This document shows positions 455 through 17,430 of a stretch of DNA of 64,000 nt, piece by piece. The stretch is from Dehalococcoidia bacterium (GTDB lineage Bacteria > Chloroflexota > Dehalococcoidia > Bin125). Both the position numbers and the translations under genes were made by a program. The stretch's first letter is position 1. Every line of letters starts with the position of its first letter. A model generated the notes under the pieces. That model had not been told where the DNA came from. It ran no database searches and saw nothing but the letters and a program-made list of their open reading frames with translations. The stretch lies in NCBI GenBank assembly GCA_963662615.2, contig CAXXSR010000001.1, positions 1,888,001 through 1,952,000 of the forward strand, read 5' to 3'.

Positions 455-595
455 CCGCTCACCCTGACCCTGCCTGTCCTGACCAGTCCTTCCGTCCTCG
501 GAAGGAGCTTGCCGAAGGGCCCCAGGGTCCTGCCCAGCCTACCTGTCCTGACCGGCCCTTGCCTTCCTGGGAAGGAGCCTGCCGAAGGGCCCGTC
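455..595 (+). repeat. Composite REP-like repeat island (nested CCTGAGC..GAAGG units)
   Basis: Two cctgtcctga[cc..ccttcc..ggaagga]gc(t/c)tgccgaaggg units. Confidence 0.85.
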
Positions 596-1105
596 CGGAT
601 CTCAGCGCAACGGTCCCAGGACCAACGGCATCAACCACCGGCCACCCCGTCCGCCCAGGGCGGACGGGTGGGACCAAAGACAAGGAGTGGCGGGAGGCGG
701 CGCCGGGTCCCCACTCGCTCTTCGCCCACCGCATGCCGCTCTTCTTCCCCGCCTCGGCGACCGCCTTCACGGTCGGTTCGGAGCCGGACCTGGCCGGGGC
801 CCTCCCGATTCTTCGGAGAACGGTACGCGGTGGACTGGGTACGCTCAACGGCGCGGCCCGCCATCGACGCCATCCATCCCCTCGCGGCGGGAGCCCCGAC
901 GTTGGCGCCGCCACGGTCGCGAATAATCACCTGGGAGTTGGTCGAAATGGCCTCAACTCGGAACGCCCTGGGCGCATTACCGTCCGGCACATCGCTCCGA
1001 ATGGGCGCCCAGATCGACGCCCAGATTCACGCCCAGATGGACCCGATGCCACCCAGTTCATCGCTCCGCTCCGGCCTGGATACGCCCCTGACCCCGTCTC
1101 GATCG

Positions 1106-1470
1106 CGCCCCGCCCCCGTTCGTCCTGACCTGTCCTTCCCTTCGCGGAAGGAGCCTGCCGCAGGTCCTTCTGCGACCGCAGGGAGCCGAAGGATCGAAGG
1201 GCGAACCGTGAACGGCGCCCCGCCCCCGTTCGTCCTGACCTGTCCTTCCCTTCGCGGAAGGAGCCTGCCGCAGGTCCTTCTGCGACCGCAGGGAGCCGAA
1301 GGATCGAAGGGCGAACCGTGAACGGCGCCCCGCCCCCGTTCGTCCTGAGCTTGCCGAAGGACGACCCCCCGCGAACCCCGGCCCGTTCGTCCTGACCTGT
1401 CCTTCCCTTTGCGGAAGGAGCCTGCCGCAGGTCCTTCTGCGACCGCAGGGATCCGAAGGATCGAAGGGTC
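1106..1470 (+). repeat. Tandem 110-bp composite repeat units plus related copies
   Basis: cgcccccgttcgtcctga recurs at 1111, 1221 and 1331 (period 110). The third copy lacks the inserts, and a fourth related copy follows at about 1382-1470. Confidence 0.95.
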
Positions 1471-1561
1471 GATGGGCCAAGGACCAGCGGGGAGCCTATC
1501 GGGGGCCACGCCAGGAACGGGCGCGATCACGCGGACGCGCGCCGCCGGGACCACTGTCGTG

Positions 1562-1605
1562 AAAATGAAGAAGACCGGCCTGCATTGGCTCCCGCCAGGC
1601 CGGTC
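1562..1605 (-). terminator. Probable intrinsic terminator of the RRM gene
   Basis: 10-bp stem gaccggcctg/caggccggtc followed on the minus strand by ttcttcatttt. Confidence 0.6.
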
Positions 1606-1663
1606 CCTACCTCAGGTCTGTTGGGCTGCGCTCAGAGGACCGCAGCCCGCCGGACGTTCCATC

Positions 1664-1975
1664 CTACCAGCGACGACCGCCGCCGCCACCACCGCCCCCA
1701 CCGCCACCGCCACCGCCACCACCACGGTCCTCCCGCGGTCGTGCCTCATTTACCCGCAGGGCACGCCCCTGCATCTCGTGTCCGTTTAACCCATCAATCG
1801 CCTTGGTGGCGTCACCGGGCTGCATCTCAACGAAGCCGAAGCCCCGCGGTCGACCGGTGTCCCGGTCTGTTGGGAGCGCGCACGAAAGCACTTCGCCGTA
1901 TGCCGCAAATAGCGCCCGCACCTCTTCATCCGTGGCGGTGAAGGGTAAATTGCCTACGTAAATCTTCTGAACCAA
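1664..1975 (-). CDS. RRM RNA-binding protein with Gly-rich tail (Rbp-like)
   Basis: RNP2 KIYVGNLPF, RNP1 RGFGFVEM, LRVNEARPR, poly-Gly tail. Start taken as TTG at 1975 (ORF track gives 1993). Confidence 0.95.
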   Translation of the reverse strand: MVQKIYVGNLPFTATDEEVRALFAAYGEVLSCALPTDRDTGRPRGFGFVEMQPGDATKAIDGLNGHEMQGRALRVNEARPREDRGGGGGGGGGGGGGGGGRRW

Positions 1976-2179
1976 CTTCTGACTCTCTCTCACCGGCTCG
2001 CACCGGCGCCTCTAGCTGCGAGAATCGCAGCTCCATACTGGTACCGCAGAGTCGGCTGCGAGTCGTGCGGGAGAAGACGGCCGCGGTCGAGCCTGGGGCT
2101 GCGCTCATGGCTGAGCGTGCTCTCAGGGTAGCACGATGGCAACCGCCCACGCTCCACGGCCGGTCGCGGACCGCCATCA

Positions 2180-2655
2180 TCCGTTCGTCCTGACCTGTCC
2201 TTCCCACCTGGGAAGGCACCTGTCAAAGGGTCGAGGGACGAACGCGACATCGCCTAGACCATGAACCCTCGGCGCGAGCGGCCACGAACGTCGCGCTCCT
2301 TCGCACCCGCTGCGAGCGCGCGTGGAAAAAACCGTTCGTCCTGACCTGTCCTTCCCTCTTGGGAAGGAGCCCGTCGAAGTACGAACCCCCTTCTCCACTC
2401 CCTCATCCCCCTCTCCATCGCTCGCCCATCGAGAGGGGGTCAGGGGGTGAGGTGCCCAACCCGCTCACCCTGAACTTGCCTGTCCTGAGCCTGCCGAAGG
2501 GTCGAAGGGTCACCCTGACCTGTCCTTCCCTCCTGGGAAGGAGCCTGTCGAAGGACGAACGCCGACATCGCCCGGAGCATGAACCCTCGGCGCGAGCGGC
2601 CACCAACGTCGCGCTCCTTCACACCCGCCGCGAGCGCGCGTGGAAAAAAACCGCG
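2180..2655 (+). repeat. Composite repeat island (A units, two ~95-bp B spacers, one C hairpin)
   Basis: gttcgtcctga..gaaggacgaac units, B copies at about 2243-2333 and 2560-2652, and ccccctctccatcg..gagagggg..gggggtgagg at about 2404-2452. Confidence 0.9.
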
Positions 2656-2768
2656 CTCCCCGCGGATGCGCCCTCTACCTCCGCGCCGTATCATGCCATC
2701 GCTTCATCAGCAGCAGCTTCACCGGCAGCTGCTGCATCAGCAGCAAAGTTCCGGAAGGGTGTGAGGCC

Positions 2769-3968
2769 ATGGCGAGCAACAGAGGCGTTGCCTACATCAA
2801 GCCTGGTGTCGTGGAGGTCCGCGACATCGACGAGCCGGCGCTGACGCTCGGCGATCGCACCTGTGAGCACGGCGTGATCCTCAAGGTCATCTCCACCAAC
2901 ATCTGTGGATCGGATCAGCATATGGTTCGGGGACGGACCACCGCCCCCGAAGGGCTGATCCTGGGACACGAGATCACCGGCGAAGTGATCCAGCGCGGCC
3001 GCGACGTGGAGTTCATCAACGTCGGCGATCTCGTCTCCGTGCCTTTCAACATCGCCTGCGGTCGCTGCCGCAACTGCAAAGAACGGCTGACGGGCGTCTG
3101 CCTCAACGTCAACCCCGCCCGCCCCGGCGCCGCCTACGGCTACGTCGACATGGGCGGCTGGATCGGTGGGCAGGCCAACTACGTCATGGTCCCCTACGCG
3201 GACTTCAACCTGCTCAAGCTGCCGCCCAAAGACGAGACCATGGCCAAGATCCTGGATCTGACCTTGCTGTCGGACATCCTCCCAACCGGATTCCACGGCG
3301 CTTACAAGGCGGGCGTCGGTCCCGGCTCTACCGTCTACGTCGCCGGCGCCGGTCCCGTCGGCCTCGCCTGTGCGGCGTCCTGCCAGCTCATGGGCGCGGC
3401 CGTCGTCATCGTCGGCGATCTGATCGACGAGCGCTTGGCCCAGGCCCGCAGCTTCGGCTGCGCCACCGTCGACCTCAAGCAACCTGCCACCCTCGCCGAA
3501 CAGATCGATCAGATCCTCGGCCTGCCCGAAGTCGACTCCGCCGTCGACTGCGTCGGCTTCGAAGCGCGCGGGCACGGCGCCCAGGCCCAGGAAGAGCACC
3601 CCGCCACCGTCCTCAACTCCCTCATGGAAGTCACCCGCGCCGGCGGCGGCGTCGGCATCCCCGGCCTCTACGTCACCGGGGACCCGGGCGCCGCCACCGA
3701 GGCCGCCAGGGAAGGGCGGCTCGTCATCCGCATCGGCCTGGGCTGGGCCAGGAGCCATTCCTTCTACACCGGACAGTGCCCCGTCATGAGCTGCAACCGC
3801 CAGCTCATGCAGGCCATCCTCCACGACAGGATCCAGATCGCGAAGGCGGTCAACGCCACCGTCATCTCGCTGGACGCAGCGCCCGCCGGCTATCAAGACT
3901 TCGACCGCGGCGCCGCCAAAAAATACGTCCTCGACCCCCACGGCGACGTGGCCAAAGCGGTCGCCTAA
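2769..3968 (+). CDS. fdhA: Glutathione-independent formaldehyde dehydrogenase
   Basis: MASNRGVAY.., TNICGSDQHMVRGRT, GHEITGE, CGRCRNC Zn site, LSDILPTGFHGA, GAGPVG, FDRGAAKKYVLDPHG. Confidence 0.93.
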   Translation: MASNRGVAYIKPGVVEVRDIDEPALTLGDRTCEHGVILKVISTNICGSDQHMVRGRTTAPEGLILGHEITGEVIQRGRDVEFINVGDLVSVPFNIACGRCRNCKERLTGVCLNVNPARPGAAYGYVDMGGWIGGQANYVMVPYADFNLLKLPPKDETMAKILDLTLLSDILPTGFHGAYKAGVGPGSTVYVAGAGPVGLACAASCQLMGAAVVIVGDLIDERLAQARSFGCATVDLKQPATLAEQIDQILGLPEVDSAVDCVGFEARGHGAQAQEEHPATVLNSLMEVTRAGGGVGIPGLYVTGDPGAATEAAREGRLVIRIGLGWARSHSFYTGQCPVMSCNRQLMQAILHDRIQIAKAVNATVISLDAAPAGYQDFDRGAAKKYVLDPHGDVAKAVA

Positions 3969-3982
3969 ACACGCGCCTGCAT

Positions 3983-4068
3983 CCGCTCACCCTGAGCCCG
4001 CCGAAGGGCGAGGCTTCCTCCTCCCCCTCTCCATCGCTCACCGATGGAGAGGGGGAGGGGGGTGAGGT
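3983..4068 (+). repeat. A unit plus C hairpin between convergent genes
   Basis: ccgctcaccctgagcccgccgaaggg then ccccctctccatcgctcaccgatggagaggggg..gggggtgagg. Confidence 0.85.
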
Positions 4069-4125
4069 GCACAAACCACTCGCCCTGCCACTCTTCGCAG
4101 CGTCACTCTTCGGAGGGCTGCCGCC

Positions 4126-5130
4126 TCACACCTTGGCCAACTTGATGTAGCGACCCCCAATCAGCCACTCCGACACATAGAGGTTCCCCTCGGCGTCCGC
4201 CGCCAGCGCGTGCGGGCCGTTGAACTTCCCCGGCCTCAGCCGATTCGTGCGCATGGGAACGCCGTCCCCATCCAGCATGTTCGGCCACCCTGGCTCGTCG
4301 CCCACTTCGTGATTGTCGCCCAGGTACATGACCAGCTTGTCGTCCAAGTCCAGCACCGCCAGCCGGGCGTGCAGCTCCGCCACCACCAGATGCTCGCCGA
4401 CGCGCGCGAAGGCCGTGGGGCTGATCAGGAAATCCGAACCGAAGCTGCGCTTGTAACGGCCCTCCAGGTCGTAGACCTGGATGCGCGCGTTCGATCGATC
4501 GGCGATGTACAACTCCGGCTCCGCCTTCCGCGTGTCGATCCAGATCGCGTGGGGGCAAGCGAACGCGCCCGCCTTACCCTCGTCGCCGTTGATGCTGGCG
4601 ACGTACTCGCCACCCTTTGTGAACCGATGAATGTGGTTCTGCCCGTAGCCGTCGGTGACCCACACGTCATCGTCGCCCCCGTCCCCCGACGCATACACCG
4701 CCACCTGCGTCGGCGAATACGTGCCCGGCTTGTAGATCGGCAGCTCCGGCAGCACCAGCTCCATCTCGGTCGTCCCATCCAGCGCCGTCTTGATCACATG
4801 GCCGGCCTTCGGGCCCCAGTTGAAGTCGTACCCCTGATCGGGGTCCCGCTTGCGTCCAATGTCCGCAACCCACAGGCACTCCTTGGATCCGTCGCTGCAG
4901 ATCGTGATCCCGTGCGCCTCGCGGATCGGCAGATCCCAGCGCCGCAGCAGCGCACCGTCCCTACTCAGCTCCAGCACCGTGGGATTGGCGGGATGGAACG
5001 TCACCAGGGTCCCGCTCGCGGTCAGCGCCATGCCGTGGTGCGCCCAACCCCGCTTCGCCGCCTCTCGATCCGGGATCTCGGCGAAATCCTCAATCCATTC
5101 GTAGGTGAACTCTCCGCTGCCAATTCGCAT
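4126..5130 (-). CDS. NHL-repeat beta-propeller protein (peptidylglycine monooxygenase lyase-like)
   Basis: HGITI, VTDGYG, FACPHAIWID, IADRSNARIQVYDLEG, FNGPHALAAD, VSEW motifs. Confidence 0.85.
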   Translation of the reverse strand: MRIGSGEFTYEWIEDFAEIPDREAAKRGWAHHGMALTASGTLVTFHPANPTVLELSRDGALLRRWDLPIREAHGITICSDGSKECLWVADIGRKRDPDQGYDFNWGPKAGHVIKTALDGTTEMELVLPELPIYKPGTYSPTQVAVYASGDGGDDDVWVTDGYGQNHIHRFTKGGEYVASINGDEGKAGAFACPHAIWIDTRKAEPELYIADRSNARIQVYDLEGRYKRSFGSDFLISPTAFARVGEHLVVAELHARLAVLDLDDKLVMYLGDNHEVGDEPGWPNMLDGDGVPMRTNRLRPGKFNGPHALAADAEGNLYVSEWLIGGRYIKLAKV

Positions 5131-5267
5131 CGCTCCATCCTTCCAGCCAATGCAGCGCCATGTCTCGGCGCACCCGGATCAATGAGGGCCACAACCGCCA
5201 TCACCGCCCCATGAAAGCGCCACCGGCCCATGAAACCACCGCCCCATGAAACCACAGCGGCGGCCAT

Positions 5268-6146
5268 TCATCGACGGCCGGCCAGCCGCAGGCCTTCCTC
5301 CAGCGCTGACGTGTCGCGCACCGGCGGCGCCATGATGATCCGGAAGCCCTGCTCCAGTCGCATCGCCACATCATCCACTGTCGCGCCCACGGCACACGGA
5401 ACATCAAACTCCTGGCATGCGGCCAGGATCTGCAGCAGGCTCGCTTGCACCTCGGGATGTCGCGAGTCGCCGCGAAAGCCCATCTCCACCGACAGGTCGC
5501 CCGGCCCGGCCCAGATCGCGCCAATGCCCCGGACCTCTCGCAAAATCTCGCGAAGATTGCGGATCCCCTCCGGATCTTCCACGATTCCCATCAGCAGCAC
5601 GTTGCCATCGGGATCCAGCGGCCACAGGTCCGCGGCGTCGTAGTACTCCTGCGTCGTCAGCCCCCAGTACCGATGCGCGCTGCGCGACCACCACCCGCGC
5701 TGGCCCGCCGGCTCAAAGTCCGCCACCCCGGGGACCTGCGGATACCGCGCCGCCACCGCCGCCGCGCGCGCATCCTCCACCGTGCTCACGTGGGGCACCA
5801 CCAGCCCGTACGCGCCGGCGTCCAACGTCTGCTTGATGATCCACTGGTTCTGCTCCCGAGCGTTCGGGGGCACTCGCACCATCGGGATCACGTCCGGCTG
5901 CACGCTCCCCTTCTCCGCGATCCGCTTCCGATTCAGCAGGTACTGGAGCGAGACGCGAAGCGTGGGGAAGCTCAGCCCTTCATGCTCCATCTCAATGATC
6001 GCCATGTCATAGCGGGACTCCGCCAGCAACATCAGCTCGTCCAGGTCGCCGTTCCGGACGATCTCGGAGCTGAACACCGGCTTGCCCTGCTCCAGCAGCT
6101 CGATCACCTTGTTGTAGCGAATCTTGCCGGGCATCGTCTTCACCAT
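5268..6146 (-). CDS. HpcH/HpaI aldolase family protein
   Basis: IEMEH, PMVRVP, IKQTLDAGAYGLVVPHV, GIVED, AGPGDLS. Start could be 6134-6206. Confidence 0.88.
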   Translation of the reverse strand: MVKTMPGKIRYNKVIELLEQGKPVFSSEIVRNGDLDELMLLAESRYDMAIIEMEHEGLSFPTLRVSLQYLLNRKRIAEKGSVQPDVIPMVRVPPNAREQNQWIIKQTLDAGAYGLVVPHVSTVEDARAAAVAARYPQVPGVADFEPAGQRGWWSRSAHRYWGLTTQEYYDAADLWPLDPDGNVLLMGIVEDPEGIRNLREILREVRGIGAIWAGPGDLSVEMGFRGDSRHPEVQASLLQILAACQEFDVPCAVGATVDDVAMRLEQGFRIIMAPPVRDTSALEEGLRLAGRR

Positions 6147-6508
6147 CCGTCTCGGCGCACGGGCGTCCCCCACCTCGCGACGGTCCCTGTCCGCCTCCGT
6201 CCCCATGGCGGCCGGCGACGGCGCCGTAGTCCCCCGCGATCATGGGGAAGGACCGTGGGGAGGCTAGCCTCCACGCTGCCGCTATGCCAATCGCAGCCGC
6301 AGCCACAGCAACCACAGCCGCAGCCACTACCTCCTGGCCTACCTGCGATAGCCGCTGACTTGCACCCGATCACCAAGCGCCGAGATCGCCATCGCGACGC
6401 GGGGGAGTTCGCGGCATCAAGCGCCCATTGAGTCAGGGCGAAGCCCGACCTATACTCCCGCCCTCGCCACATCCGGACAGAGAAAGCCAGCAGAGAAAGG
6501 AATGGGTC

Positions 6509-7450
6509 ATGGTCCAAGCGACCCCCACCTTCACCACAGCCGACTTGGACGCCATGGCGCAGCAAGTCTCGAACTGGGGCCGCTGGGGCGCCGACGACGA
6601 GCGCGGCGCCCTCAACCTCATCACTGACGCCAAGCGCGCCGCCGCCGCCGCCCTCGTCACTGAGGGCGTGGCCGTGAGCTGCGCCCTCCCCCTCGCCGTG
6701 ACGCCCGCGCCGGATAATCCGACCCCGGTGGCGCACCTCATGGTCAAGACCGGCGACGCGACCGAACACGCCGCCATTCCCGGCCTCTTGTCAACGGGCG
6801 ACTACTTCGCCATGGCGCCCCACGGCATTGCCAATACCCACCTGGACGCGCTCTGTCATATCGTCGTTGCCGGCAAGATCTACAACGGCTTCGACGTCGC
6901 AGAGGTGCGCAGCAACGGCGCCCACCGCAACAGCATCATGGCCGCCAAGGACGGCATCGTCAGCCGCGGCGTGCTCCTCGACATCCCCGGCCTCCGCGGC
7001 GTCGACTGGCTCGAGCCGAGCGAGCGCATCGCCCGTGGCGAGCTGGAGGCCGCCGAGGATCGCCAGGGCGTGCGCGTGGAGGCCGGCGACGTCCTCCTCA
7101 TCGCGACCGGGCGCGACGCCCGCCGCGACGCGCATGGCCACTGGGGCATGCTCGACGGCATGGCCGGCCTCGGCGCCGACTGCATCCCCTGGCTGCGCGA
7201 GCGCGACGTCGCCGTCTTAGGCTGCGACGGCGTCTCCGACGCCGTCCTCAACGACACCGAGGGCTGGCCCATGCCCGTCCATCAGATCGTCATCCCCTAC
7301 CTCGGCGTCCACCTGATCGACAACCTGCAGCTGGGCCGGCTCTCGGCGGCCTGCCGCGAGCGCAACCGCTGGGCGTTCCTGTTCACACTCGCGCCCTTGC
7401 GTCTGGAGCGGGGCACCGCCTCGCCCGTCAATCCCATCGCAATGTTTTAG
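6509..7450 (+). CDS. Cyclase family (kynurenine formamidase-like) metallohydrolase
   Basis: NWGRWGADDERGALN, HGIANTHLDALCH, GIVSRGVLLDIP, GDVLLIATG, GTASPVNPIA. Confidence 0.9.
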   Translation: MVQATPTFTTADLDAMAQQVSNWGRWGADDERGALNLITDAKRAAAAALVTEGVAVSCALPLAVTPAPDNPTPVAHLMVKTGDATEHAAIPGLLSTGDYFAMAPHGIANTHLDALCHIVVAGKIYNGFDVAEVRSNGAHRNSIMAAKDGIVSRGVLLDIPGLRGVDWLEPSERIARGELEAAEDRQGVRVEAGDVLLIATGRDARRDAHGHWGMLDGMAGLGADCIPWLRERDVAVLGCDGVSDAVLNDTEGWPMPVHQIVIPYLGVHLIDNLQLGRLSAACRERNRWAFLFTLAPLRLERGTASPVNPIAMF

Positions 7451-7461
7451 AAGCGCCCCCA

Positions 7462-7755
7462 ACCCGCTCACCCTGACCAGTCCTTCCCTCCTAGGAAGGA
7501 GCCTATCGAAGGGCGCACCTTCCGTTCGTCCTGAGCTTGCCGAAGGACGAACCCTCCCGCCACTTCCTCCTCCCCCTCTCCATCGCCCACCGATGGAGAG
7601 GGGGCTAGGGGGTGAGGTTCCCTGTCCGTCCTGAGCTTGCCCAAGGGTCGAAGGACGAACGCCGCCGACATCGCCCCAAGCGTCAACCCTCAGCGCGAGC
7701 CGCCACCAACGCCGCGCGACCCCGCATGACCCGCGAGCGCGCGTCAAAAAAAGGC
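7462..7755 (+). repeat. Composite repeat island (A, C and B modules)
   Basis: A units at about 7463, 7523 and 7621, C hairpin at about 7567-7617, B spacer at about 7660-7753. Confidence 0.9.
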
Positions 7756-7781
7756 GCCACGCATTCCGACGATTCGCCGCG

Positions 7782-8357
7782 TCAGGATCCCCGCCGACGG
7801 ACCACCGACCGGAACGTCCCTCCCCGCTTGCTGGCTGTGCCGTCCATCGCCTGGCGCATCCGCTTCAGTCCCCGCTGCTGCAGCGCCCGCACCGCCTGTT
7901 CCGACTTCCCCATCTGGCGGGCGACTTGCGCGTGCGAGAGCTGCTCAAAGTAGCGAAGGACCAGCACCTGCCGCTGCGTCTCCGGCAGCACCAGCAGCGC
8001 GCTGCGGAGACGCTCGGCATCGATCTTGCCTTCCAGCAAGGCAACGGGGTTCCCGTACCTGCTCCCCTCGGCCCGCTCAGGAACGTCCGCCAGCGGCGCC
8101 ACCGGCCGCCGTCTCAACTCGCGCACGACTTGGTGATGCGCAATGCGAAAAAGCCACGCGTCGAACCGTCCCACCTGCCGCAGCTGGCGCAGGTCCCTCC
8201 ACGCAAGCAGGAACGTCTCCGCCACCACGTCCTGCGAGCGATCGACGTCCCGCAAGATCGAGCCAACGTAGCGCGACACGGCCCCTGCGCGCGCGCGGTA
8301 GAGCGCCGCGAACGCTTCGCGGTCGCCTCCCTTCGCACGGGCGACCAACTCTTCCAC
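7782..8357 (-). CDS. ECF RNA polymerase sigma-70 factor
   Basis: GDREAFAALY, DVVAETFLLAW, FDAWLFRIAH (region 2); LPETQRQVLVLRYFEQLSHAQVARQMGKSEQAVRALQQRGL (region 4). Confidence 0.93.
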   Translation of the reverse strand: MEELVARAKGGDREAFAALYRARAGAVSRYVGSILRDVDRSQDVVAETFLLAWRDLRQLRQVGRFDAWLFRIAHHQVVRELRRRPVAPLADVPERAEGSRYGNPVALLEGKIDAERLRSALLVLPETQRQVLVLRYFEQLSHAQVARQMGKSEQAVRALQQRGLKRMRQAMDGTASKRGGTFRSVVRRRGS

Positions 8358-8485
8358 TGGACTTTCGTGCCCTGCCTTTACGCCGCCTTCGTTGCCAGTG
8401 GCGCTAGCGTGCCTTCTCGTTTCGGTTCGATCCGGTGACGACGCTCTCCTCCCCGAAGCCGCCGCACGACCGTCCGCTCAACCGT

Positions 8486-8517: not shown

Positions 8518-8541
8518 CTCGATCGCTAATCGATAGCCGCG

Positions 8542-10716
8542 CTAGTCGTCGTCGTCGTCCTCCTCATTCTCGTCCTCGTCCTCCTCATCGTCGGCGTTGT
8601 CATCCAAGGCCAAGGCCTCGGGGCCGTCCGAATCCTCCTCACCGTCCTCCTCGATCTCGATTTGCATCTCACCATCTTCGATCTCGATCTCAATCTCCAT
8701 CCCACCGACGTGGATCTCCATCTCGAATTCGATCTCGCCGTCGCTGAGCGCTCCCGCTCCCGGGTCGATCCCCAGAGCGTCGAGGAGACTGCGCACGAAA
8801 GCCAGGATGTCGGCCGCCCCCAGGCTAGAGATGACGGGGCCGTCGTTGTCGAGGTTGGTGACCGCAACGTTGGCCGGGTTGATCCCGTCGAACGTGCCGT
8901 CCCCACTCACGGCCGCATCGGTGACAACCGTGTAGGCGATGTTGCCATCGTCCACCGCATCAGCAACACCGGTGACAGTGACCGTCTGCGGCGTCGAAAA
9001 GTTGACCGCAGTAAAGGTCAGGCTCGTCGGCGAGACCGTTCCCTCCGTCGTGTCATCGGAGGAGATACCGATCGTCACGTCCGCCGTCGGCTCGGACGTC
9101 AGGACCACGGTGAAGGTGTCCGTACCACCGCCCTCGGTCGTCTCCAAGCCCGTCGTGGGGGTCACCGTGATTCCGGCCCCCTCCACGATGGCCGTGACGG
9201 TGACCGTGCCCGACGTTGCCGGACCCGTACCGCTGGACAGGGCGCTCTGCTTGACAGTGACGTCCAGGGTGCGGTTCGCGTCGAAGTCCGTCCCATCGTA
9301 TTCCAGGGTGATCCTCGCCCGGGTATTACCGAGGCGGGTGACCGTCTCGATCGTCGTGCCCGGCACGGTGCCGCCAACGGCGAAATCGCCCGTAGCGAGC
9401 GCGGCGTCAAACGTGCCGCCGTCTATCTCGACCCTGACCGTCGCTCCGTCCAGGTCGTCCTCGCGCAGCGAGGCCGGGTTGGTCGATAAGATCGTTGCCG
9501 TCAACGCGCCTACTGCTGCCACATTGAAGGCGCTGCTGATGGCCGCTGTGAGCACGGGCGACGACGTGAACTTGAGCGTGTAGCCGGTCCCTGGGGTGTC
9601 AACCTCCAGGTTCGTGAACGTCACCACGCCGTTCACGGCCTCTACCGTCAGCGTGCCGCCCTCGGGGTTGGTCTCGATCGCCGCCGTCACTTCGGTAGTC
9701 GAGTCCGACGTCACGACGCTGCCGAACTGGTCCTGGATTGCAATGACCGGCTGTGGCGACAACGCCAACCCTGCGATGCCGTTGCCCGGTTGCGTCTGAA
9801 TTCCAAGCTGGGTAGCCGTCCCCGCCGACACGTTGAAGGGGCCGCTCGTGGCCGGCACCAGGCCCGTAGCCGTGAAATCCAGCGTGTAGCCGTCCCCGGC
9901 CTTGTCGATCTCCAGGTTCGTGAACGTCGCCACGCCGTCCGATACCATTACCGTCTGTGTCCCGCCCAGGACGCCCGTGCCCGGGTTGTTGTTGATCGCC
10001 GCCGTTACGTCAGTGGTCGAGTCCGAGGTCACGACGTTGCCGAACTGGTCCTGGATCTCAACGACCGGCTGTGCCGTGAAAGCGGTGCCGCCCGTCGCCC
10101 CGGCGGGTTGCGTCTGCACGGCGAGCTGTGTAGCCGCTCCATGCGTGACGGTGATGTTCGAGATACCGCTATTGATCTCCAGAACAGGAGCGCCCGCCGT
10201 TCCGGTCGCGGTGATCTCGCCCCCCTGCGCTCCCGGATTTGCTCCATTCGTCGGCTGGAGCAGGCTCGGCGTCCCGCCTCCGACGGTGATGGTGAGGGCG
10301 CCCGCTGCGCCCGCGCCGGTGAAGGTAATGACAACATCGCCGGAAACAATTGCTGCACTCGCGGCGGCAGTACCTACGCCTGCGCCCCCGACGACCACAT
10401 CAGGTGCCGGAGTGACAAAGACGAGGCCTGTTGGTGGATTCAGTACGACCGTCTCGCCGTCCCCGACCTCCGTGCCGTCCGCGAACGTGATGACGAGGTC
10501 CTGTGAGTTCGCGGCATTCAGATCCGTCGCCGCCGGAGACGTTGCGTCCTCGGCGGTATCGACGCTGATGGTGACGTCCCCAAAGCCCGTAGTGAGAGCG
10601 CCACCGGCATCAGCGATGACGATCATCACGAACAGCGCGACCGCCAGCGCGGCCACGCTGGCAGCCAGCGTCGCGATCAGCGGCGCCCTGAAGAGTCTCC
10701 GTCCTCGTGCTTCCAT
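8542..10716 (-). CDS. Large secreted/surface protein with two Ig-like repeats, a Calx-beta-like domain and an acidic C-terminus
   Basis: N-terminal hydrophobic signal; duplicated QL.IQTQP..QPV..IQDQFG.VVTSDSTT.VTAAI..TFTNL.ID..G.GYTL.FT; TEGGGTDTFTVVLTSEPTADVT..TPQTVTVTGV; D/E-rich tail. Confidence 0.8.
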   Translation of the reverse strand: MEARGRRLFRAPLIATLAASVAALAVALFVMIVIADAGGALTTGFGDVTISVDTAEDATSPAATDLNAANSQDLVITFADGTEVGDGETVVLNPPTGLVFVTPAPDVVVGGAGVGTAAASAAIVSGDVVITFTGAGAAGALTITVGGGTPSLLQPTNGANPGAQGGEITATGTAGAPVLEINSGISNITVTHGAATQLAVQTQPAGATGGTAFTAQPVVEIQDQFGNVVTSDSTTDVTAAINNNPGTGVLGGTQTVMVSDGVATFTNLEIDKAGDGYTLDFTATGLVPATSGPFNVSAGTATQLGIQTQPGNGIAGLALSPQPVIAIQDQFGSVVTSDSTTEVTAAIETNPEGGTLTVEAVNGVVTFTNLEVDTPGTGYTLKFTSSPVLTAAISSAFNVAAVGALTATILSTNPASLREDDLDGATVRVEIDGGTFDAALATGDFAVGGTVPGTTIETVTRLGNTRARITLEYDGTDFDANRTLDVTVKQSALSSGTGPATSGTVTVTAIVEGAGITVTPTTGLETTEGGGTDTFTVVLTSEPTADVTIGISSDDTTEGTVSPTSLTFTAVNFSTPQTVTVTGVADAVDDGNIAYTVVTDAAVSGDGTFDGINPANVAVTNLDNDGPVISSLGAADILAFVRSLLDALGIDPGAGALSDGEIEFEMEIHVGGMEIEIEIEDGEMQIEIEEDGEEDSDGPEALALDDNADDEEDEDENEEDDDDD

Positions 10717-10773
10717 TGCGGTTCCGTCCTTTCCGCGCAGACACGCTGCCAATGAGGCCAGGGGGAGTGCGCT

Positions 10774-11934
10774 CTAGTCGCCGTCTTCGCCGTCGTCCTC
10801 ACTTTGCACGCCGGCCCCATCCAGGGCCTCCTCACACGCCTCTTCCGCCTCCTCGTCGTCCAGTTCGTCGCACGCCTCCCTGAGCGCGTGGTACTCAGCC
10901 TTCGCCCCCTTCTCGACGTCATCGATCGCCTCTTCGCAGGCGCCCAGCTCCTCCTCGCTGCTGATTCCGCTGCACAGCTCCCCCACAAGCGGCAGCGGCG
11001 CCGTGGAGCCGGCCTCGCCCGCGGCGCCGGAATCCGCCGAGTTGAGCTGCGCCTCGACCGCCTCTTCAAGGTCGTCCAGGGTGTCTTGGCAAGCCTCCAG
11101 CGCGTCTCTGCTTGTCACCTCACTGCAGCTCTGCGCCACGATCTCAACCAGCTCCTCCACGTAGGCCTCTTCCACGCTGTTCACCACGGAGCCCAACGTC
11201 TCCAGTGAGGCGCCCAGCGAGTCCGAAAGGGTGGGCGCAGCCGTCACGGAGGCGCTCTCTCCAGGATCCGCGGCAGGCGGCGTGTCGGGCTTCGTTCCCG
11301 TTTCTGGTTCCGCTTCCGCCTCTCGCTCTGTCCCCTCCACCCCCGGGACCGACGCCAGCGAGCCCTGCACCTCGGCCAGGGTCGCCGCCACGCTCTTCAG
11401 ATCGTCAAGCGCAAGCTCGGAAAGGACGCCCCCGTCGTCGTCAAGCGCCGCTGCCAGCGCCCCCGCGCGCTCGTGCACCTCGGCACGCTCCGCCGCGGAG
11501 ATCTGCGCATCCAAAACGATCGCGTCGGTGAGCCGCGCCAGATCCTCAACGTCCCTGAAGAACTCGGCGCTGGCGTCGTCCTTCGGTATGAGCAGGAGCA
11601 CCGCGCTAACGGCCACGCCGATCAACACTGCGGCCGCCACCGCGGACGCGACCCGAGGCACCACCGCGGCGAAGGCGGGCAAGGGCGGCCCCCAGCCTGC
11701 CCATCCACGCTGCCGGGTCCGCTCAATGCCAGGCTCCACCTTGTCCCAAATGGCATCGACGTCAAGGCACGGACCGCTCGCAGCGAACTCCTCGATCGCC
11801 AGCGCTGCATCGGCCAGAGGGTCACGCTCCGCGTCCGCGGGGAGCGCCTCCCCCTGCCGACGCGCGGCGATCCGCCGCTCCACCGCGTCTAGGTCGTCTG
11901 CGTCCACGTCGGCGGCGTTGGGCTTGTCTGCCAT
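10774..11934 (-). CDS. Single-pass membrane protein, putative anti-sigma factor
   Basis: About 90-aa N-terminal domain with DAIWDKV, TM helix AAAVLIGVAVSAVLLL, acidic helical C-domain with repeated L.AC..A/T motifs. Anti-sigma role inferred from the neighbouring ECF gene. Confidence 0.55.
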   Translation of the reverse strand: MADKPNAADVDADDLDAVERRIAARRQGEALPADAERDPLADAALAIEEFAASGPCLDVDAIWDKVEPGIERTRQRGWAGWGPPLPAFAAVVPRVASAVAAAVLIGVAVSAVLLLIPKDDASAEFFRDVEDLARLTDAIVLDAQISAAERAEVHERAGALAAALDDDGGVLSELALDDLKSVAATLAEVQGSLASVPGVEGTEREAEAEPETGTKPDTPPAADPGESASVTAAPTLSDSLGASLETLGSVVNSVEEAYVEELVEIVAQSCSEVTSRDALEACQDTLDDLEEAVEAQLNSADSGAAGEAGSTAPLPLVGELCSGISSEEELGACEEAIDDVEKGAKAEYHALREACDELDDEEAEEACEEALDGAGVQSEDDGEDGD

Positions 11935-11994
11935 GTAGCCGGACCCCCGGCCCGCACCCTCTCTGCGACGGAGCGCTGGAGAGAGGAGGGCCTC

Positions 11995-12330
11995 CCCTGA
12001 CCGCTCCTTCCCTCCTGGGAAGGAGCCTGTCGAAGGGCCGAAGGAGCGAGCAGCGCTTGAGACTCGTCCCCTTTAACTGGTCCGGCGGAGCGGAGTTCGT
12101 GACGATCGATCAGGGGCGGCTTCTGTTAACCGCTTGACATCCATGACCGTCGCGCGACCCCGGATGACACACGAGCGCGCGTCCAATAACCGCTCACCCT
12201 GAGCCTGTCGAAGGGTCGAAGGGCGCCGACGTCGTCCTGATCATCAAGCCCCAGCGCGAGCGGTCACGAACGGCGCGCTGGCCCAGACGAGTCGCGAGCG
12301 CGGGCGAAAAAGTCGAAGGACGAACGCCGA
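11995..12330 (+). repeat. A units and degenerate B spacers
   Basis: cctga[ccgctccttccctcctgggaagga]gcctgtcgaaggg at about 11996, A unit at about 12190, degenerate B at about 12225-12312, half B at about 12148-12190. Confidence 0.75.
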
Positions 12331-12629
12331 TGGCGGGCAGGGAGCGGACTTGAGCCCACTTCGATCTGCTCATTCCCGGCCAGCGCTCCTTCGGCCCACG
12401 TCGCAATATCGTTGAAGTGGGCGGCCAGGTGCGGGCTCTCGTAGTCTCTCGACTGCAGGAGGCCGGCGATGGCGACCTCCCGGATCGAGCGCAGCGCCTC
12501 CAGCATCCCCTCGGAGGCGCTGCCGTCCATTCTTGCCGCGGACGGTGACAATCCCTCCTCAATGTCGTGCAGCCCTCGCAAGAGCCGGTCGCGCCATTCG
12601 ACGTACGGCGTCAGTGTGCGATTACGCAT
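12264..12629 (-). CDS. Hypothetical protein; C-terminus runs into repeat sequence
   Basis: ATG preceded by aaggag; GC3-like codon pattern in the first ~95 codons. Confidence 0.55.
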   Translation of the reverse strand: MRNRTLTPYVEWRDRLLRGLHDIEEGLSPSAARMDGSASEGMLEALRSIREVAIAGLLQSRDYESPHLAAHFNDIATWAEGALAGNEQIEVGSSPLPARHRRSSFDFFARARDSSGPARRS

Positions 12630-13189
12630 CGTTGGGCTCCTTCCCATCCCTATTCAAGCTCTGTCGTTCGCTCCTCGACTCCTGAACACGCTCGACCTGT
12701 CCCGCCTATAGCGCGGCGGCGCTTCCGCCTTCGGCCCCAGCGCGCTGCGCCGTCTGCGAATCCGCGAAGAAAGGTCTGGCCACGGGCGCCGGCCCGCCGC
12801 CGTGGAGAGGGCACGACCGCGGAGCGCCCTCTGCCGTGGCTCGAGCCACGCGGCAGCGAGCGCCCACCACGCGCCGTCGAGGGCCGGTTGCCGGACGCTG
12901 TGGAACCGGTTCTGTCGAACACAAAAGAAGGCAACCATCCGCGAAACGCCTCCTTGCGTAACGCGGCGCTGCCTTCTGCGTCTGTCTGTTGACAGCCGGC
13001 GCTCGGTACCTTCGCTGCCCCTTGACACGCGGGGAGGGGTCAGCGGAACGTCGGCTCGTCTATCTTCGCCCGCAGCCTAACGGCGCCTCCAGCCGTTATC
13101 AAAGGCGTGGACGCGGCGCTGCCCCGCCACTCCCCGCTCGCCCTGGGGCAGGTGGGTGGGACAAAAACCAAGGGCGGGGGGCGGGCATC

Positions 13190-13715
13190 CGCTCACCGTT
13201 CGCTGGCCTGTCCTGCGCTTGCCTGTCCTGAGCCTGTCGAAGGACCGAAGGATCGAAGAGCCTGCCCTGAGCTTGTCGAAGGGGCGAAGCGCCTCCTCCT
13301 CCCTCCCCACCTCCTCCCCCTCTCCATCGCTCGCCGATGGAGAGGGGCCGGGGGTGAGGTTCCCCCTCCGCCCTGCGCCTGCCTGCCCTAACCTGTCCTT
13401 CCCTCCTGGGAAGGAGCTTGCCGAAGGGTCGAAGCGCGCACCTTCCGTTCGTCCTGACCTGTCCTTCCCTCCTGGGAAGGAGCCTGTCGAAGGACGAACG
13501 CCGCCGACATCGCCCCGAGCATGAACCCTCGGCGCGAGCCGCCACCAACGCCGCGATCCTTAGCACCCGCTGCGAGCGCACGTGGAAAAAACCGTTCGTC
13601 CTGAGCCTGTCGAAGGACGAACGCCGCCGACATCGCCCAAAGCATGAACCCTCGGCGCGAGCGGCCACCAACGCCGCGATCCATCGCACCCGCTGCGAGC
13701 GCACGTGGAAAAGCC
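13190..13715 (+). repeat. Composite repeat island with nested A units and an A-B-A-B array
   Basis: Nested units at 13207-13252, C hairpin at about 13306-13358, B copies at about 13499-13592 and 13622-13713, each preceded by an A unit. Confidence 0.92.
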
Positions 13716-13725
13716 GCCCCGATGC

Positions 13726-14358
13726 CTAGGGGTGGATCCCGCCCCCGTCGATGCGGTTGAAGAACTCCGCCCGCGTTTTCGCGTCGTCCCGAAACGCACC
13801 CAACAGGGCGCTGGTTCGCATCCGCGCATTGGCCTTCTTGGCTCCCCGCATCGCCACGCACATGTGCAGCGCGTCCACCACCACGCCCACGCCCTGCGGC
13901 TTGATCAGCTCGTCCAGCAACTTCGCGATCTGATTGGTCATCCGCTCCTGCACCTGCATCCGACGCGCGAACGCATCCACCACCCGCGGAATCTTTGACA
14001 GCCCCACAACCGTCTTGTCGGGCACATAGGCCACGTGCGCCTCGCCAATGATGGGCAGGAGGTGATGCTCGCATAGGCTGTAGAACTCAATCTGGCTCAC
14101 CACCACCATCTGCTCATACTCTTCCACAAAAAGCGCGTTATTGAGCAGCGCCACGGGATCCACCGTGTAGCCCGCCAGCAATTCGTCGAACATGCGCGCC
14201 ACGCGCTCAGGCGTGCCCCGCAAGCCCTCGCGCTCAGGATCTTCGCCCACGCTGTCCAGGATGTGCAGCACCGAATTGGCGACCTCGCGTTTGCAGTCCG
14301 CTGCCAGCACCGGTCCATCCGTCAGCCGCGCCGAAAGTTCATCCGAAATGGTGTGCAC
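13726..14358 (-). CDS. folE: GTP cyclohydrolase I
   Basis: GEDPEREGLRGTPERVARM, FYSLCEHHLLP, GLSKIPRVV, QVQERMT, HMCVAMRG. GTG start after GGAGG. Confidence 0.97.
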   Translation of the reverse strand: MHTISDELSARLTDGPVLAADCKREVANSVLHILDSVGEDPEREGLRGTPERVARMFDELLAGYTVDPVALLNNALFVEEYEQMVVVSQIEFYSLCEHHLLPIIGEAHVAYVPDKTVVGLSKIPRVVDAFARRMQVQERMTNQIAKLLDELIKPQGVGVVVDALHMCVAMRGAKKANARMRTSALLGAFRDDAKTRAEFFNRIDGGGIHP

Positions 14359-14705
14359 TGCGATCCTCCATCTATCAACGCTCAGCTGGACGACCCCCCG
14401 CCGTGCGGGCAATCGCTGGAGACCATGTCCCCCAGCTCCCCGCGCGCGGTTGCAGAGTAGCCAAAAGCACGCCGACGGTGTGAGGCGCGATAGCAGCCTC
14501 TAAGCAGCCGGCATTTGGGAACGTGGAGACCGCAGCGAGGCGCCTGCCCGCTGCCTGGGACACCGCGCCGATGTCGACACCGCCGCCACGACGACACCGT
14601 CATCACACAGCGAACCGCGCAACGCCCCGGGCCGGCGATGATCGAAACCACGCAGGCTGCCCTCGCCCAGGCGATGCCGGGCTCCCCGGCGCCCGGGCGA
14701 GCTGC

Positions 14706-16082
14706 TTACTCCAGCAAGCGCACCACCGGGTCACCGCCGGGAATGACGTAGTTCACGAACTCGATCGCAATGTTCCCCGAGCCGGAAAGGTCGAACGTAT
14801 CGACGATGATCTGGACGGGCCCCAAGTTCCCGCTGCCGGACATCGCGAGCTCTGCGCCGGGGAGGTAGATGACACCGCCCAAGCTGTCGCCGCTGCCCTC
14901 CAGCGTCATGCTCTTGTCGCAAGCGATGTCCTGCCAAAAGACAATGTCCGTATAGGGCCCGCTGGCCGGACCCGTGAAGACATTGTTCCCCGAGCCGCGG
15001 AGATCGATCCGTTGGCAGCGCGCCGGGCTCGCCGGATTACCTTGGGGGACGTACGGGTCGTTGGTGTTGTAGATCATCACCCCGTTCCCGTTGAGGTCGC
15101 CCGATCCGCTGTACACGAAACCGCCGCCCGCCATCACGTAGATCCCGGAGGCAAAGACCAGATTGCCGCTGGCGGACATCTGGATGCCGCCGTAGTACAC
15201 GCCGGGCTGGATGACGGTCGGGCCCGAACCGGTGATATGGAGAGTCGCTGGGGACTCGGCGGTGCCGCCGGAGTCGGGCGAGATGCTGGCCGGCGACGTG
15301 CCCGGCGGCGTCAGGCTCGCAAGCGGATCGGGCACGCGCGCGCCGTACGGCTCCGGCCAGGGCGTGTAGACGCCCGACCCGCTGAGCGTCTCCGTCCCCT
15401 CGTAGTAGTAGTGGATCATCGACGCCTGCACGTCGCCGCTGCCCACGCCGTTCAAGGCCCCGTTCGACGGGTTGTTGCAGGCGGAATTCACCATGATGCC
15501 GCCGCCTTGAATGTCCAGAAGGCCGCTGCCGGACTTGTCGTAGGAGCGGCACTCGTCCTCATTCAACGTCAAGAGCGCGTAGCCGCCGCTCCCCCCTGGA
15601 ACGCTGCGCGCCACCGCGCGCGCGCTGCGATTCCCAAAGTCGTGAATCACGTACGACGGCGGCGCCGTCACCGTGACCTCAACGGCCATCGCGTCGCCCT
15701 GGTACGGCGTCACCACGGTCACGGGCGCGCCGTCCACACCGTCCCCGAAGCCGTTCCCCTCCGCATAATCCTGTGCCACCGCCGTCGCCAGCGAAGCGTT
15801 CGGGAGGTCCTGGGCCGCAGCGAGAGAGGCTGCATCGGCCGCGTTCTGCAACTCGCGCCGCGTGCTCAGCGCCATGCCGCCATCAATGACGATGCCCATG
15901 AACACAAGGAGGAGGGGAAACAGCAGCGCGACAAGGATGAGAGTCAGGCCCTGCTCATCGCCCCACAATCGCCCACGCCGGCAGACACGGAGATGCGCGC
16001 TCCCCCAGCGGCCTGCGGCCGCCAACGCCCGGCGCCAACGCCCCACTGGACGAGCTGACAATCGCGGTGGCCGAGCTGTCAT
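14706..16082 (-). CDS. TadG/TadE-like pilus-assembly (Tad domain) protein
   Basis: DEQG-hydrophobic-GIVIDGG..RRELQNAADAASLAAA; C-terminal GVIYLP/IIVDT beta-helix-like region. Confidence 0.85.
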   Translation of the reverse strand: MTARPPRLSARPVGRWRRALAAAGRWGSAHLRVCRRGRLWGDEQGLTLILVALLFPLLLVFMGIVIDGGMALSTRRELQNAADAASLAAAQDLPNASLATAVAQDYAEGNGFGDGVDGAPVTVVTPYQGDAMAVEVTVTAPPSYVIHDFGNRSARAVARSVPGGSGGYALLTLNEDECRSYDKSGSGLLDIQGGGIMVNSACNNPSNGALNGVGSGDVQASMIHYYYEGTETLSGSGVYTPWPEPYGARVPDPLASLTPPGTSPASISPDSGGTAESPATLHITGSGPTVIQPGVYYGGIQMSASGNLVFASGIYVMAGGGFVYSGSGDLNGNGVMIYNTNDPYVPQGNPASPARCQRIDLRGSGNNVFTGPASGPYTDIVFWQDIACDKSMTLEGSGDSLGGVIYLPGAELAMSGSGNLGPVQIIVDTFDLSGSGNIAIEFVNYVIPGGDPVVRLLE

Positions 16083-16191
16083 TCTCGCTCTCGATCGATA
16101 CGAGGACGCCGGCGCACTGACCCTGGATGGGTCGCGCGCAGGCGCGGGGCCGCGAACCCGCCGCCCTCCATATCAATGGTCGGCGCCCGGC

Positions 16192-16235
16192 ACGCCTCCT
16201 TGAGCCAACGCGTCCTTAAGCCAACGCCTCCTTGA
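16192..16235 (-). repeat. Three 16-bp-period direct repeats upstream of the TadG-like gene
   Basis: acgc(c/g)tcctt(g/a)a at 16192, 16208 and 16224. Confidence 0.75.
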
Positions 16236-16532
16236 ACCGACGCCACCACGCGTTGCTCCACGCGCAGCGGTCCTACGACTCTCGACACGAGCCAAACGCG
16301 AACACCGTCCGCCAAGGGGCCAGGGGCGGCCCGCCACCTCGCCCACGCGGGCAGCCTCCGGCGCGCCCGGCGAAGGGGTGAGGTCCTTACTTGGTCAGTC
16401 TGGAAATGCGCGATTCCCACCGCGATCGCCCGCGGAGTTTTGCCGGACGCGCCCGCACCCGCCGATGCGCCCGCACCCGCCGAAGCGCCAGCCGCGACCG
16501 GCGCCCGGGCGCTGTCCTGGCGGCGGACGGCC

Positions 16533-16751
16533 CTACCGCCGGTGGACGGCCTCCAAAATCGTGCTCAAGTGTCCAATGGCGCTGCGTTGCAGCAGGCGCA
16601 CATCCGCCACACTGCGCCCCAGCCGCGTCGCAATCGTCTCGGAGGAGAGCCCCTCAAACATGCGCAGCTCCACCACCACCCGCTCCCAGCGCGGCAGCGC
16701 AGAGAGCCCGCTCCCAAGGTCGGTCTCAGTCCAGGTCGTCACGGTCCCCAT
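16533..16751 (-). CDS. Stand-alone sigma-70 region 4 domain protein (72 aa)
   Basis: LSALPRWERVVVELRMFEGLSSETIATRLGRSVADVRLLQRSAIGHL; purine-rich RBS before the ATG. Confidence 0.75.
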   Translation of the reverse strand: MGTVTTWTETDLGSGLSALPRWERVVVELRMFEGLSSETIATRLGRSVADVRLLQRSAIGHLSTILEAVHRR

Positions 16752-16909
16752 CCCCTCTCCCTGGCACGTGCGCCTCCCGGCGCGGCTGCCCATCCCGACG
16801 GCGCATCGACGCCGCCTCGCTGTGCCCATCCATCTGTAAGACGCAGCCGCGCCCAGATCCTTACAATCGCACCGCCACGCCGCCCCACCGCCCTGCACGC
16901 CGCCACCCC

Positions 16910-17430
16910 CCGCTCACCCTGAGCTTGTCGAGGGGTCACCCTGAGCCTGTCCTTCCCCCCGCCGAAGGAGCCCGTCAAGGGCCTCCCCTGAGATTGTCGA
17001 AGGGCGAACGGCGGCTCCTAACCGTTCGTCCTGAGCCTGTCGAAGGGGCGAACGGCACTCCCCCTTTCCAGCGGTTTCCGGTGGAGAGGGGGTTAGGCGT
17101 GACGTGCAGAACCCGCTCACCCTGAGCTTGTCGAAGGGTCACCCTGACCTGTCCTTCCCTTTGCGGAAGGAGCCCGTCAAAGAGCCTGCCCTGAGCTTCC
17201 CGAAGGGGCGAAAGCCGCCGACATTGCCGCGAGCATCAACCCTTAGCGCGAGCGGCCGCCAACGCCGCGCTCCTTCGCACCCGCTGCGAGCGCGCATGGA
17301 AGAACCCGTTCGTCCTGAGCTTGTCGAAGGGGCGAACGGCACTCCCCCCCTCTCCACCAGCTTGCGGTGGACAGGGGCGACGCGGTGAGGTCATCCCCCC
17401 GTTCGTCCTGAGCCTGTCGACGGACGAACA
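16910..17430 (+). repeat. Composite repeat island (last one seen in the window)
   Basis: Multiple ccctgagcttgtcgaaggg / gttcgtcctgagc units, a B copy at about 17215-17305, C-like hairpins. Confidence 0.9.

Follow-up and report, generated by a model that had tools for sequence, protein, structure and literature searches.

The stretch of DNA analysed here (the window) comprises 64,000 nucleotides of a Dehalococcoidia genome (G000; 2.66 Mb, two contigs C1 and C2, 68% G+C) and corresponds to G000:C1:1888001-1952000; labels of this type denote individual genomes. The intergenic spacers of its first 17.4 kb contain many copies of a hairpin resembling a repetitive extragenic palindrome (REP), in which a variable stem surrounds the loop CTGAGC-YTGY-CGAAG, and short units of the same family were found inserted in these hairpins. 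The sequences directly display fixed insertion sites, matched numbers of 5' and 3' hairpin halves in the nests, a constant inner unit in variable stems, two exact pairs of hairpins with and without 23 nt, and a nuclease cassette with the units on either side. The simple, empty form of the REP is CCGTTCGTCCTGAGCCTGTCGAAGGACGAACGG (13592-13624), which as single-stranded DNA (ssDNA) folded with −10.6 kcal/mol (z −4.2 against shuffled sequences). Because the core CCTGAGCYTGYCGAAGG occurs in 67 exact copies genome-wide and the same pattern read backwards in none, the accumulation in the window is confirmed as real and far above chance. A regular-expression search (regex) detected 16 contiguous cores (up to two mismatches) in the first 20 kb, all on the plus strand; the minus strand of the window yielded no core, and beyond 20 kb none was found with up to one mismatch. 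An Rfam scan of positions 1-18000 (E up to 1) returned merely chance microRNA-like matches on another repeat.

Two inserted units, termed U and S, were distinguished. U is a 23-mer (CCTG + YCCT + GAGCYTGYCGA + AGGR), whose insertion site GAGCYTG^YCGAAG is the point at which the loop halves of another unit meet. S is a 24-nt hairpin (CCTG-TCCTTCCC-TCCT-GGGAAGGA) with compensating changes in the variable top of its stem, and its insertion site, CCTGA^GC, precedes that of U by 6 nt. Between positions 455 and 17430, two U units at GAGCYTG^YCGAAGG and at least 12 copies of S at CCTGA^GC are present, all on one strand. The first-pass annotation of this DNA had described such units as hairpins that insert into each other at fixed sites without target duplication, and all of its coordinates proved to be correct. 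Excision of 13222-13244 (CCTGTCCTGAGCCTGTCGAAGGA) joins 13207-13221 (CCTGTCCTGCGCTTG) to 13245-13252 (CCGAAGGA) and restores another unit, and the same 23-mer is located at 2479-2501 between GAACTTG and TCGAAGG. About a dozen copies of S had been estimated; the regex found 12 in the first 20 kb, and two variants (2185-2208 and approximately 12006-12030) were recognized by eye. The term hairpin is appropriate for S, which folds strongly (−8.3 kcal/mol, z −3.9), but not for U by itself, for which the DNA fold (−1.0 kcal/mol, z −0.3) indicates no stable hairpin.

The fixed sites were also evident in the whole of G000, in agreement with the earlier description. Nineteen of the 36 genome matches to U (up to two mismatches) lie exactly at GAGCYTG^YCGAAG. 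The remaining 17 comprise five ordinary REPs with GCTCG stems, four copies in an unrelated G-rich repeat (H2, described below), two at the S site, three after ...AAGAG or ...AAGGG, and three with a single matching flank only. A variant of U, CCTGYCCCGAGCTTGTCGAGGGA, occupies the S site (CCTGAA^GC) at G000:C1:691995 and 1451271. For S, 50 of 68 regex matches have CCTGA immediately to the left and GC to the right, and seven more are preceded by a one-letter variant of CCTGA. Target duplications are absent for both units, the borders of U being ambiguous by 1 nt (G) and those of S by 2 nt (GA). Since U and S alike begin with CCTG-TCCT and end with AGGR, the common ends suggest that foot and stem base, rather than the loop, mark the mobile unit.

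All features of the window described in the following are located on the plus strand; the 5' and 3' halves of a hairpin are referred to as A and B. The first unit (477-519) is split by a 24-nt S (483-506) at CCTGA^GC, the second (546-589) by a 25-nt S variant (552-576). A tandem array of approximately 110-bp repeats (1118-1473) consists of three filled composites and one empty REP (1336-1366, core 1344-1360). Each filled composite is a REP with S (1129-1152, 1239-1262, 1396-1419) and a 36-nt filling (1158-1193 and its copies). The empty copy has the same left flank as the filled copies 1118-1206 and 1228-1316, so that empty and filled sites do occur side by side, as had been stated; within G000, this filled/empty comparison is paralogous only. 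A REP with S (2345-2368) at 2333-2385 is followed by a host unit of the GCTCACCC type (2463-2509) carrying U (2479-2501) at GAACTTG^TCGAAGG, and by a further REP (2513-2560), whose S (2519-2542) is flanked by CCCTGA and GCCTGTCGAAGG. A solo unit lies at 3983-4012 (core 3991-4007). In the section 7463-7660, a host with S (7477-7500) is followed by a REP standing alone (core 7530-7546) and by a unit that bears an additional 3' half (core 7630-7646). At 11995-12050, a host with an S variant is followed by two 3' halves, and at 12190-12225 (core 12198-12214) the 3' half TCGAAGGG is duplicated, giving an A-B-B unit. The U inside U described above forms part of 13207-13290, which includes a further U (core 13266-13282). 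Two hosts with S (13392-13415 and 13458-13481) are situated at 13378-13500, the second of which folds as a single coaxial hairpin (−17.8 kcal/mol, z −5.7), and the solo REP serving as reference for the empty form follows at 13592-13624. The last part of the repeat-bearing region contains a cluster at 16910-17050 (cores 16918-16934, 16987-17003, and 17030-17046; S at 16946-16969), a second one at 17113-17215 (core 17121-17137, an S host with S at 17148-17171, and U after ...AAGAG, core 17190-17206), and two solo REPs at 17306-17431 (cores 17314-17330 and 17407-17423).

Nesting was quantified by tallying the A and B halves around each innermost core. The 96 cores of G000 gave the (A,B) tallies (1,1) in 68 cases, (1,2) in 10, (1,3) in five, (2,2) in 11, and (2,3) in two; in several (1,2) cases the outer A is merely interrupted by S. 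At 115 loci of other genomes, where nests are mostly of the form A-A-B-B, 80 of the 98 cores with two A halves also have two B halves (one B in 12, three in five, four in one), and depths of 3/3 and 4/4 are found. A-A-B-B is the form that results when a complete unit enters at the A^B junction, whereas tandem slippage would yield A-B-A-B. The first-pass annotation had named slippage among the findings that would undermine its proposal. An origin of the nests without any insertion, through slippage during replication or duplication in place at the short direct repeats CCTG and CGAAGG, is highly improbable: such a process predicts A-B-A-B or unequal numbers of halves, the sequence of the inner unit differs from that of its host, and S has no counterpart in the host, so that reconstruction of a nest from the host alone fails for S and for a U with a different loop. 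Slippage nevertheless acts on these repeats too, as the extra B halves demonstrate: tandem 8-nt 3' halves (A-B-B and A-B-B-B) surround 15 of the 96 cores of G000 (10 (1,2) and five (1,3)), and whole repeats form tandem arrays.

The inner units of G000 are more uniform (mean pairwise difference 0.092) than the outer ones (0.235), and the loop GAGCTTGCCGA is present in 10 of 19 inner units compared with 6 of 71 solo cores. With a search pattern that did not specify the four letters of the inner stem, 42 nests were retrieved from five other genomes, and every one had NCCT at this position (38 TCCT, 3 CCCT, 1 GCCT); the outer stems of the same nests vary (GTGCT, GCCCT, GTCCT, and others), and their 3' sides change in compensation. 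These sequence comparisons mark the inner unit as a distinct entity. A search for a longer element split at the A^B junction, based on orphan 5' halves, resulted in chance coding matches only. An unbiased screen for insertions and deletions using 12+12-mer junctions returned mostly tandem and coding repeats and gave no independent proof; it included a few clean cases of 23 or 24 nt, whose 'empty' sites were other copies of the repeat.

As an alternative to repeated insertion, the nests might represent composite subfamilies only, which arose by accident once or a few times and were then amplified as wholes, the fixed sites reflecting common descent. Part of the material clearly fits this description at the sequence level. 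The 36-bp unit at 1158-1193 had been given correct coordinates and called a further sister of U and S, but it does not represent a set of independent insertions: it is confined to a single composite of approximately 110 bp with five copies, three in tandem in the window and two at G000:C1:1874959 and 886874, and thus records one event that was subsequently copied. The same applies to U within H2. This second repeat family combines a hairpin (CCCCCTCTCCATCGC...GGAGAGGGGG) with a G-rich tail after it (GGGGGTGAGGT), and has copies at 2407-2453, 4023-4068, 7572-7618, and 13316-13360 of the window as well as in the relatives G004, G008, G009, G015, and G024. Four H2 copies in the genome contain a U unit and one contains an S unit; two of the four U units share the odd loop GAGCTAG, and a third has the related GAGCGAG.

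Comparison of orthologous sites bears on this alternative more directly. The nearest relatives of G000 (approximately 80% identity in one gene) have no alignable spacers and hence no orthologous empty sites, so that the precise empty alleles which the first-pass annotation had suggested looking for were obtained not there but in another, nest-rich Chloroflexota lineage (G053-G069). The hairpin approximately 70 nt upstream of one conserved gene reads CCGTTCGCCCTGAGCTTG-[23 nt]-TCGAAGGGTG in G054 and lacks the 23 nt in all five relatives compared (G055, G059, G069, G061, and G053), without target duplication. Likewise, the terminal hairpin of the nuclease cassette has the 23 nt in G055 and lacks them in G061 and G054. 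At two further nests of G054 (sites 3 and 4), the relatives have no hairpin whatsoever; whole nested hairpins are therefore also gained or lost, and composites move or arise as units. At site 2, the arrays are rearranged among the relatives and no clean filled/empty pair could be identified. The outer hairpin of this site in G069 (L245; CCGTTCGTGCTGAG...TCGAAGCATGAACAG) holds a different 20-nt filling instead of U, which implies that the loop centre accepts other inserts. The exact 23-nt pairs inside otherwise homologous hairpins, the combination of diverse outer stems with a constant inner unit, and nesting depths of two to four make it unlikely that composite subfamilies are the whole explanation, despite the copied 36-nt and H2 composites and the hairpin-less relatives. 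Contigs assembled independently from all four public sequencing runs (Logan) span 12290-13282 with no or one difference. The U-in-U structure is thus not an assembly artefact, which had been raised as a possible objection.

Outside G000, the 29-nt junction of U in a loop (GAGCYTGCCTGYCCTGAGCYTGYCGAAGG) is found exactly in more than 115 stretches of a collection of species-representative genomes. According to record titles, the matches listed include Chloroflexota, Planctomycetota, Verrucomicrobiota, Lentisphaeria, Acidobacteriota, Bacteroidota, Actinomycetota, several classes of Pseudomonadota, and others, and nests are up to four deep. Within the family to which G000 belongs, the core has a patchy distribution (present in 8 of 41 genomes; 67, 31, 22, and 8 copies in the richest four). 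The S-in-host pattern had no match in any other genome of the contig collection searched, and S therefore appears to be lineage-specific. A unit pair was also observed in frame inside genes resembling Ser/Thr kinases in two metagenome-assembled genomes (L063 and L094), at the same protein position, and is apparently translated as an extra loop.

The first-pass annotation had noted that no mobilizing enzyme is encoded in the window, and the candidate gene is indeed 805 kb away. A search with PF01541 identified P0001, a gene for a GIY-YIG protein of 102 amino acids (G000:C1:1083325-1083630), with an E-value of 1.6e-18; the protein matches this family at E 7.3e-19 over residues 3-74, and no other Pfam family was detected. 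The motifs GIY (residues 5-7) and YIG (residues 15-18) are readable. A GIY-YIG gene flanked by the units had been one of the arrangements considered worth looking for, and P0001 conforms to it: in the intact cassette (G000:C1:1083270-1083640), a forward REP ends 25 nt ahead of the ATG, and the last codons and the stop are overlapped by an inverted REP whose stem is of a different type. Remnants of a second, decayed cassette at approximately 1498105 comprise the upstream REP and 37 similar residues, after which the sequences diverge. Of 80 loci with P0001 homologues from many phyla, surveyed with a strict loop motif, 24 are flanked by units on both sides, the forward one mostly 33-56 nt before the start and the inverted one mostly 278-316 nt after it; 11 loci have the downstream unit only and one has the upstream unit only. 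All five genomes of the G053-G061 lineage, which contain fresh nests, encode a homologue (48-52% identity in four, 41% in G059). NCBIfam has no family for P0001, and its nearest solved proteins belong to UPF0213 (PDB 1zg2 and 1ywl). We consider a small Ssn-like GIY-YIG nuclease with a different hairpin to be the most likely associated enzyme.

The mechanism originally suggested, that of REP-associated tyrosine transposases (RAYTs) or of IS200/IS605 elements, would require an HUH transposase of the Y1 type that acts in trans on ssDNA hairpins, cuts at the tetranucleotide foot, and pastes the unit. The anatomy of foot and stem, the absence of target duplication, the insertion after CCTG, and the strand bias would all suit such an enzyme, and matches to PF01797, the Y1 family including RAYTs, are present in five other nest-bearing genomes. 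The same search, which was positive in 6 of 14 control genomes, gave no match in G000, however. Five Y1 loci fetched from the nest-bearing genomes have no unit within 1.5 kb save two chance matches with two mismatches, and a GTAG-type tag is absent. The suggestion was consequently not upheld, and we regard a Y1 mechanism as quite improbable.

The orientation of the units follows the composition of the surrounding DNA. In 91 of 93 units and in 18 of the 19 clusters, which are separated by more than 20 kb, the CCTGAGC strand is the locally C-rich strand. Windows of 20 kb with units (28 of 132) have an absolute skew of 0.099 compared with 0.052 elsewhere (Mann–Whitney p 6e-6); in the window analysed here, the skew ranges from −0.07 to −0.23 in approximately the first 24 kb and is close to zero thereafter, where units are absent. 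The direction of genes does not explain the orientation, since plus-strand units occur in all four gene contexts (++ 11, −− 10, +− 7, −+ 15). The strand rule fits a process acting on one single strand, and it may also characterize entire repeat-rich blocks. Contig C1 shows a mosaic skew, whose sign changes more than 10 times, all repeat families being located in high-skew blocks and co-oriented with the skew, and the sole strong dnaA match (G000:C2:407705-408178) belongs to the 653-kb contig rather than to the 2.0-Mb one; for these reasons, skew cannot be equated with replication direction here. One of the co-oriented families is a repeat of approximately 100 bp that starts with CGCCGACATCGCCC and ends with GCGAGCGCGCGT and an A run, usually with a REP directly after it (window positions 2560-2650, 7663-7750, 12224-12310, 13502-13590, 13625-13710, and 17216-17305). 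Independently of these families, a 15-nt insertion (CAGCCACAGCAACCA), an extra copy of a local tandem unit, was noticed at position 6299 in contigs of two of the four public runs.

The independence from gene direction also argues against selected structural modules such as terminators, RNA stabilizers, or protein-binding sites with a tolerant loop centre, in which the insertion sites would merely reflect survivorship. In favour of such modules, the centre between CTGAGC and TCGAAG is variable in other taxa (GAAG, GCGA, GTAG, and long fillings), and the 20-nt filling of G069 occupies the same outer hairpin as U does elsewhere. They find no match in Rfam, though, and would leave the identical 23-mer filling in many phyla unexplained, which makes this explanation improbable.

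On balance, U and S are probably very small non-autonomous elements that insert into the single-stranded hairpin loops of their own family; the part played by the nuclease we only infer. Both behave like non-autonomous insertions, U entering at the junction of the loop halves and S 6 nt earlier. As U carries the loop of its own family, it would itself become a target, from which the A-A-B-B nests would follow. Elsewhere, the same hairpin forms the two inverted ends of a compact cassette for a single-domain GIY-YIG nuclease of approximately 100 amino acids. By analogy with Ssn, this nuclease may recognize the hairpin in ssDNA and cut beside or in it. The cut might open the loop or trigger copying from a filled copy, with host repair joining the ends. 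The filling could be a released unit that is ligated, or it could result from repair synthesis templated on a filled copy with the hairpin arms as homology; repair synthesis appears more plausible than ligation, since the enzyme would have no joining activity of its own. Templated repair of this kind would amount to a homing-like conversion, and composites, once made, would also be copied as wholes. A bolder formulation is possible and rather doubtful: 23 nt of DNA, retained nearly letter for letter in more than 10 phyla, would be the smallest known true mobile element, its recursive nests would result from targeting its own loop, and cleavage of that loop by the small single-strand GIY-YIG nuclease would allow the copying-in of a filled copy, causing a homing-like drive among the repeats rather than among genes.

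Besides the slippage, the wholesale copying, and the hairpin-less relatives described above, several observations weigh against insertion with the aid of the nuclease. Neither side of 44 of the 80 homologue loci has the strict motif; among six of these that were inspected, the centre that separates CTGAGC from TCGAAG is variant in five, and in the sixth a longer filling separates CTGAG from TCGAAG. Inside the family, the co-occurrence of P0001 with the units is weak: G044 (31 cores) and G041 (8), whose genomes are 84-87% complete, have no P0001 homologue, and G009 (22 cores) has only a GIY-YIG protein of 39% identity. We know of no GIY-YIG nuclease with joining activity. The orientation rule is obeyed by S (49 of 50), H2 (29 of 29), and the end of the approximately 100-bp repeat (51 of 51) as well, and hence is not specific to the units. 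No filled/empty polymorphism was found in the contigs of the four public runs; as these contigs break at repeats and lose rare variants, the result carries no information on mobility.

If insertion into the loops is correct, mobile DNA can be far smaller than thought, and U and S are possibly among the smallest mobile DNA elements known. Single-strand GIY-YIG nucleases would gain a role in the spread of their own hairpins, and both the occurrence of one short hairpin in distant phyla and the mosaic clusters of intergenic repeats would be explained. The nests would be natural records of insertion order and site, and the pair of enzyme and hairpin could add specificity for ssDNA tools.

Neither this hairpin nor repeats that insert into one another's loops, and hence nesting as such, are described in the literature searched. 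With respect to the enzyme, the closest system in the literature is that of the Ssn nucleases, single-domain GIY-YIG proteins that bind the directional NTS/SRM hairpin and cut only ssDNA beside it (Chenal et al., 2025, PMC11893778). According to the available text of that article, their genes, found in many phyla, lie between inverted copies of a directional hairpin repeat that is dispersed in tens to hundreds of copies, a layout its authors call IS-like (like an insertion sequence). P0001 shares with them the single domain of approximately 100 amino acids, the position between inverted copies of a dispersed directional hairpin, and the distribution across phyla. It differs in its nearest solved relatives, the UPF0213 proteins, and in the hairpin: the CGTC-tagged SRM search sequence (HGTCWY...RNCYNB), as given in the accessible part of the article, fits none of 68 REPs and none of the 80 homologue loci, and its 26 matches in the whole of G000 compare with 18 in a reversed control. 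The words 'nested' and 'inserted' are absent from the main text, as far as accessible, which describes neither nesting nor 23-nt derivatives, and CTGAGC and TCGAAGG were not found in the accessible supplements.

REPs, their inverted doublets (REPINs), and RAYTs, judged by the portion of the source available, resemble the present repeats as high-copy, intergenic, imperfect palindromes of 20-40 nt with a repeat-flanked gene and a suspected ssDNA mechanism (Bertels & Rainey, 2011, PMC3116915). The units of G000 differ by being co-oriented singlets rather than inverted doublets and by the lack of a Y1 transposase and of a GTAG tag, and the REP literature searched does not describe REPs as inserting into one another's loops. 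IS200/IS605 elements have hairpin ends, cause no target duplication, insert beside a short specific word, and show a replication-linked strand bias. U following CYTG and S following CCTGA without duplication are similar to this, a pattern that fits other mechanisms too; TnpA (Y1) is absent and the units are an order of magnitude smaller than known derivatives. The bacterial interspersed mosaic elements of enterobacteria are intergenic mosaic clusters of REPs and short motifs, in which REPs of alternating orientation lie side by side. The clusters of the window are likewise intergenic mosaics of REPs with other short motifs; all 16 cores are on the plus strand and none on the minus strand, however, and the units lie inside one another.

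The nearest precedent in behaviour, as far as the source consulted in part allows this to be judged, are the small dispersed repeats (SDR) of cyanobacteria. SDR4-6 of Nostocaceae were reportedly described by Elhai and colleagues in 2008 as mobile-looking repeats of 21-27 nt with no enzyme known. In the accessible part of a later article, SDR5 is stated to insert precisely after nucleotide 3 and before nucleotide 4 of HIP1 (Elhai, 2015, PMC4390886). The 23- and 24-nt units are similarly set with precision in another short palindromic repeat, a likeness that concerns behaviour only. They differ from SDR elements in sequence and phylum, in having a candidate nuclease cassette, and in that their target is their own family, which leads to recursion.

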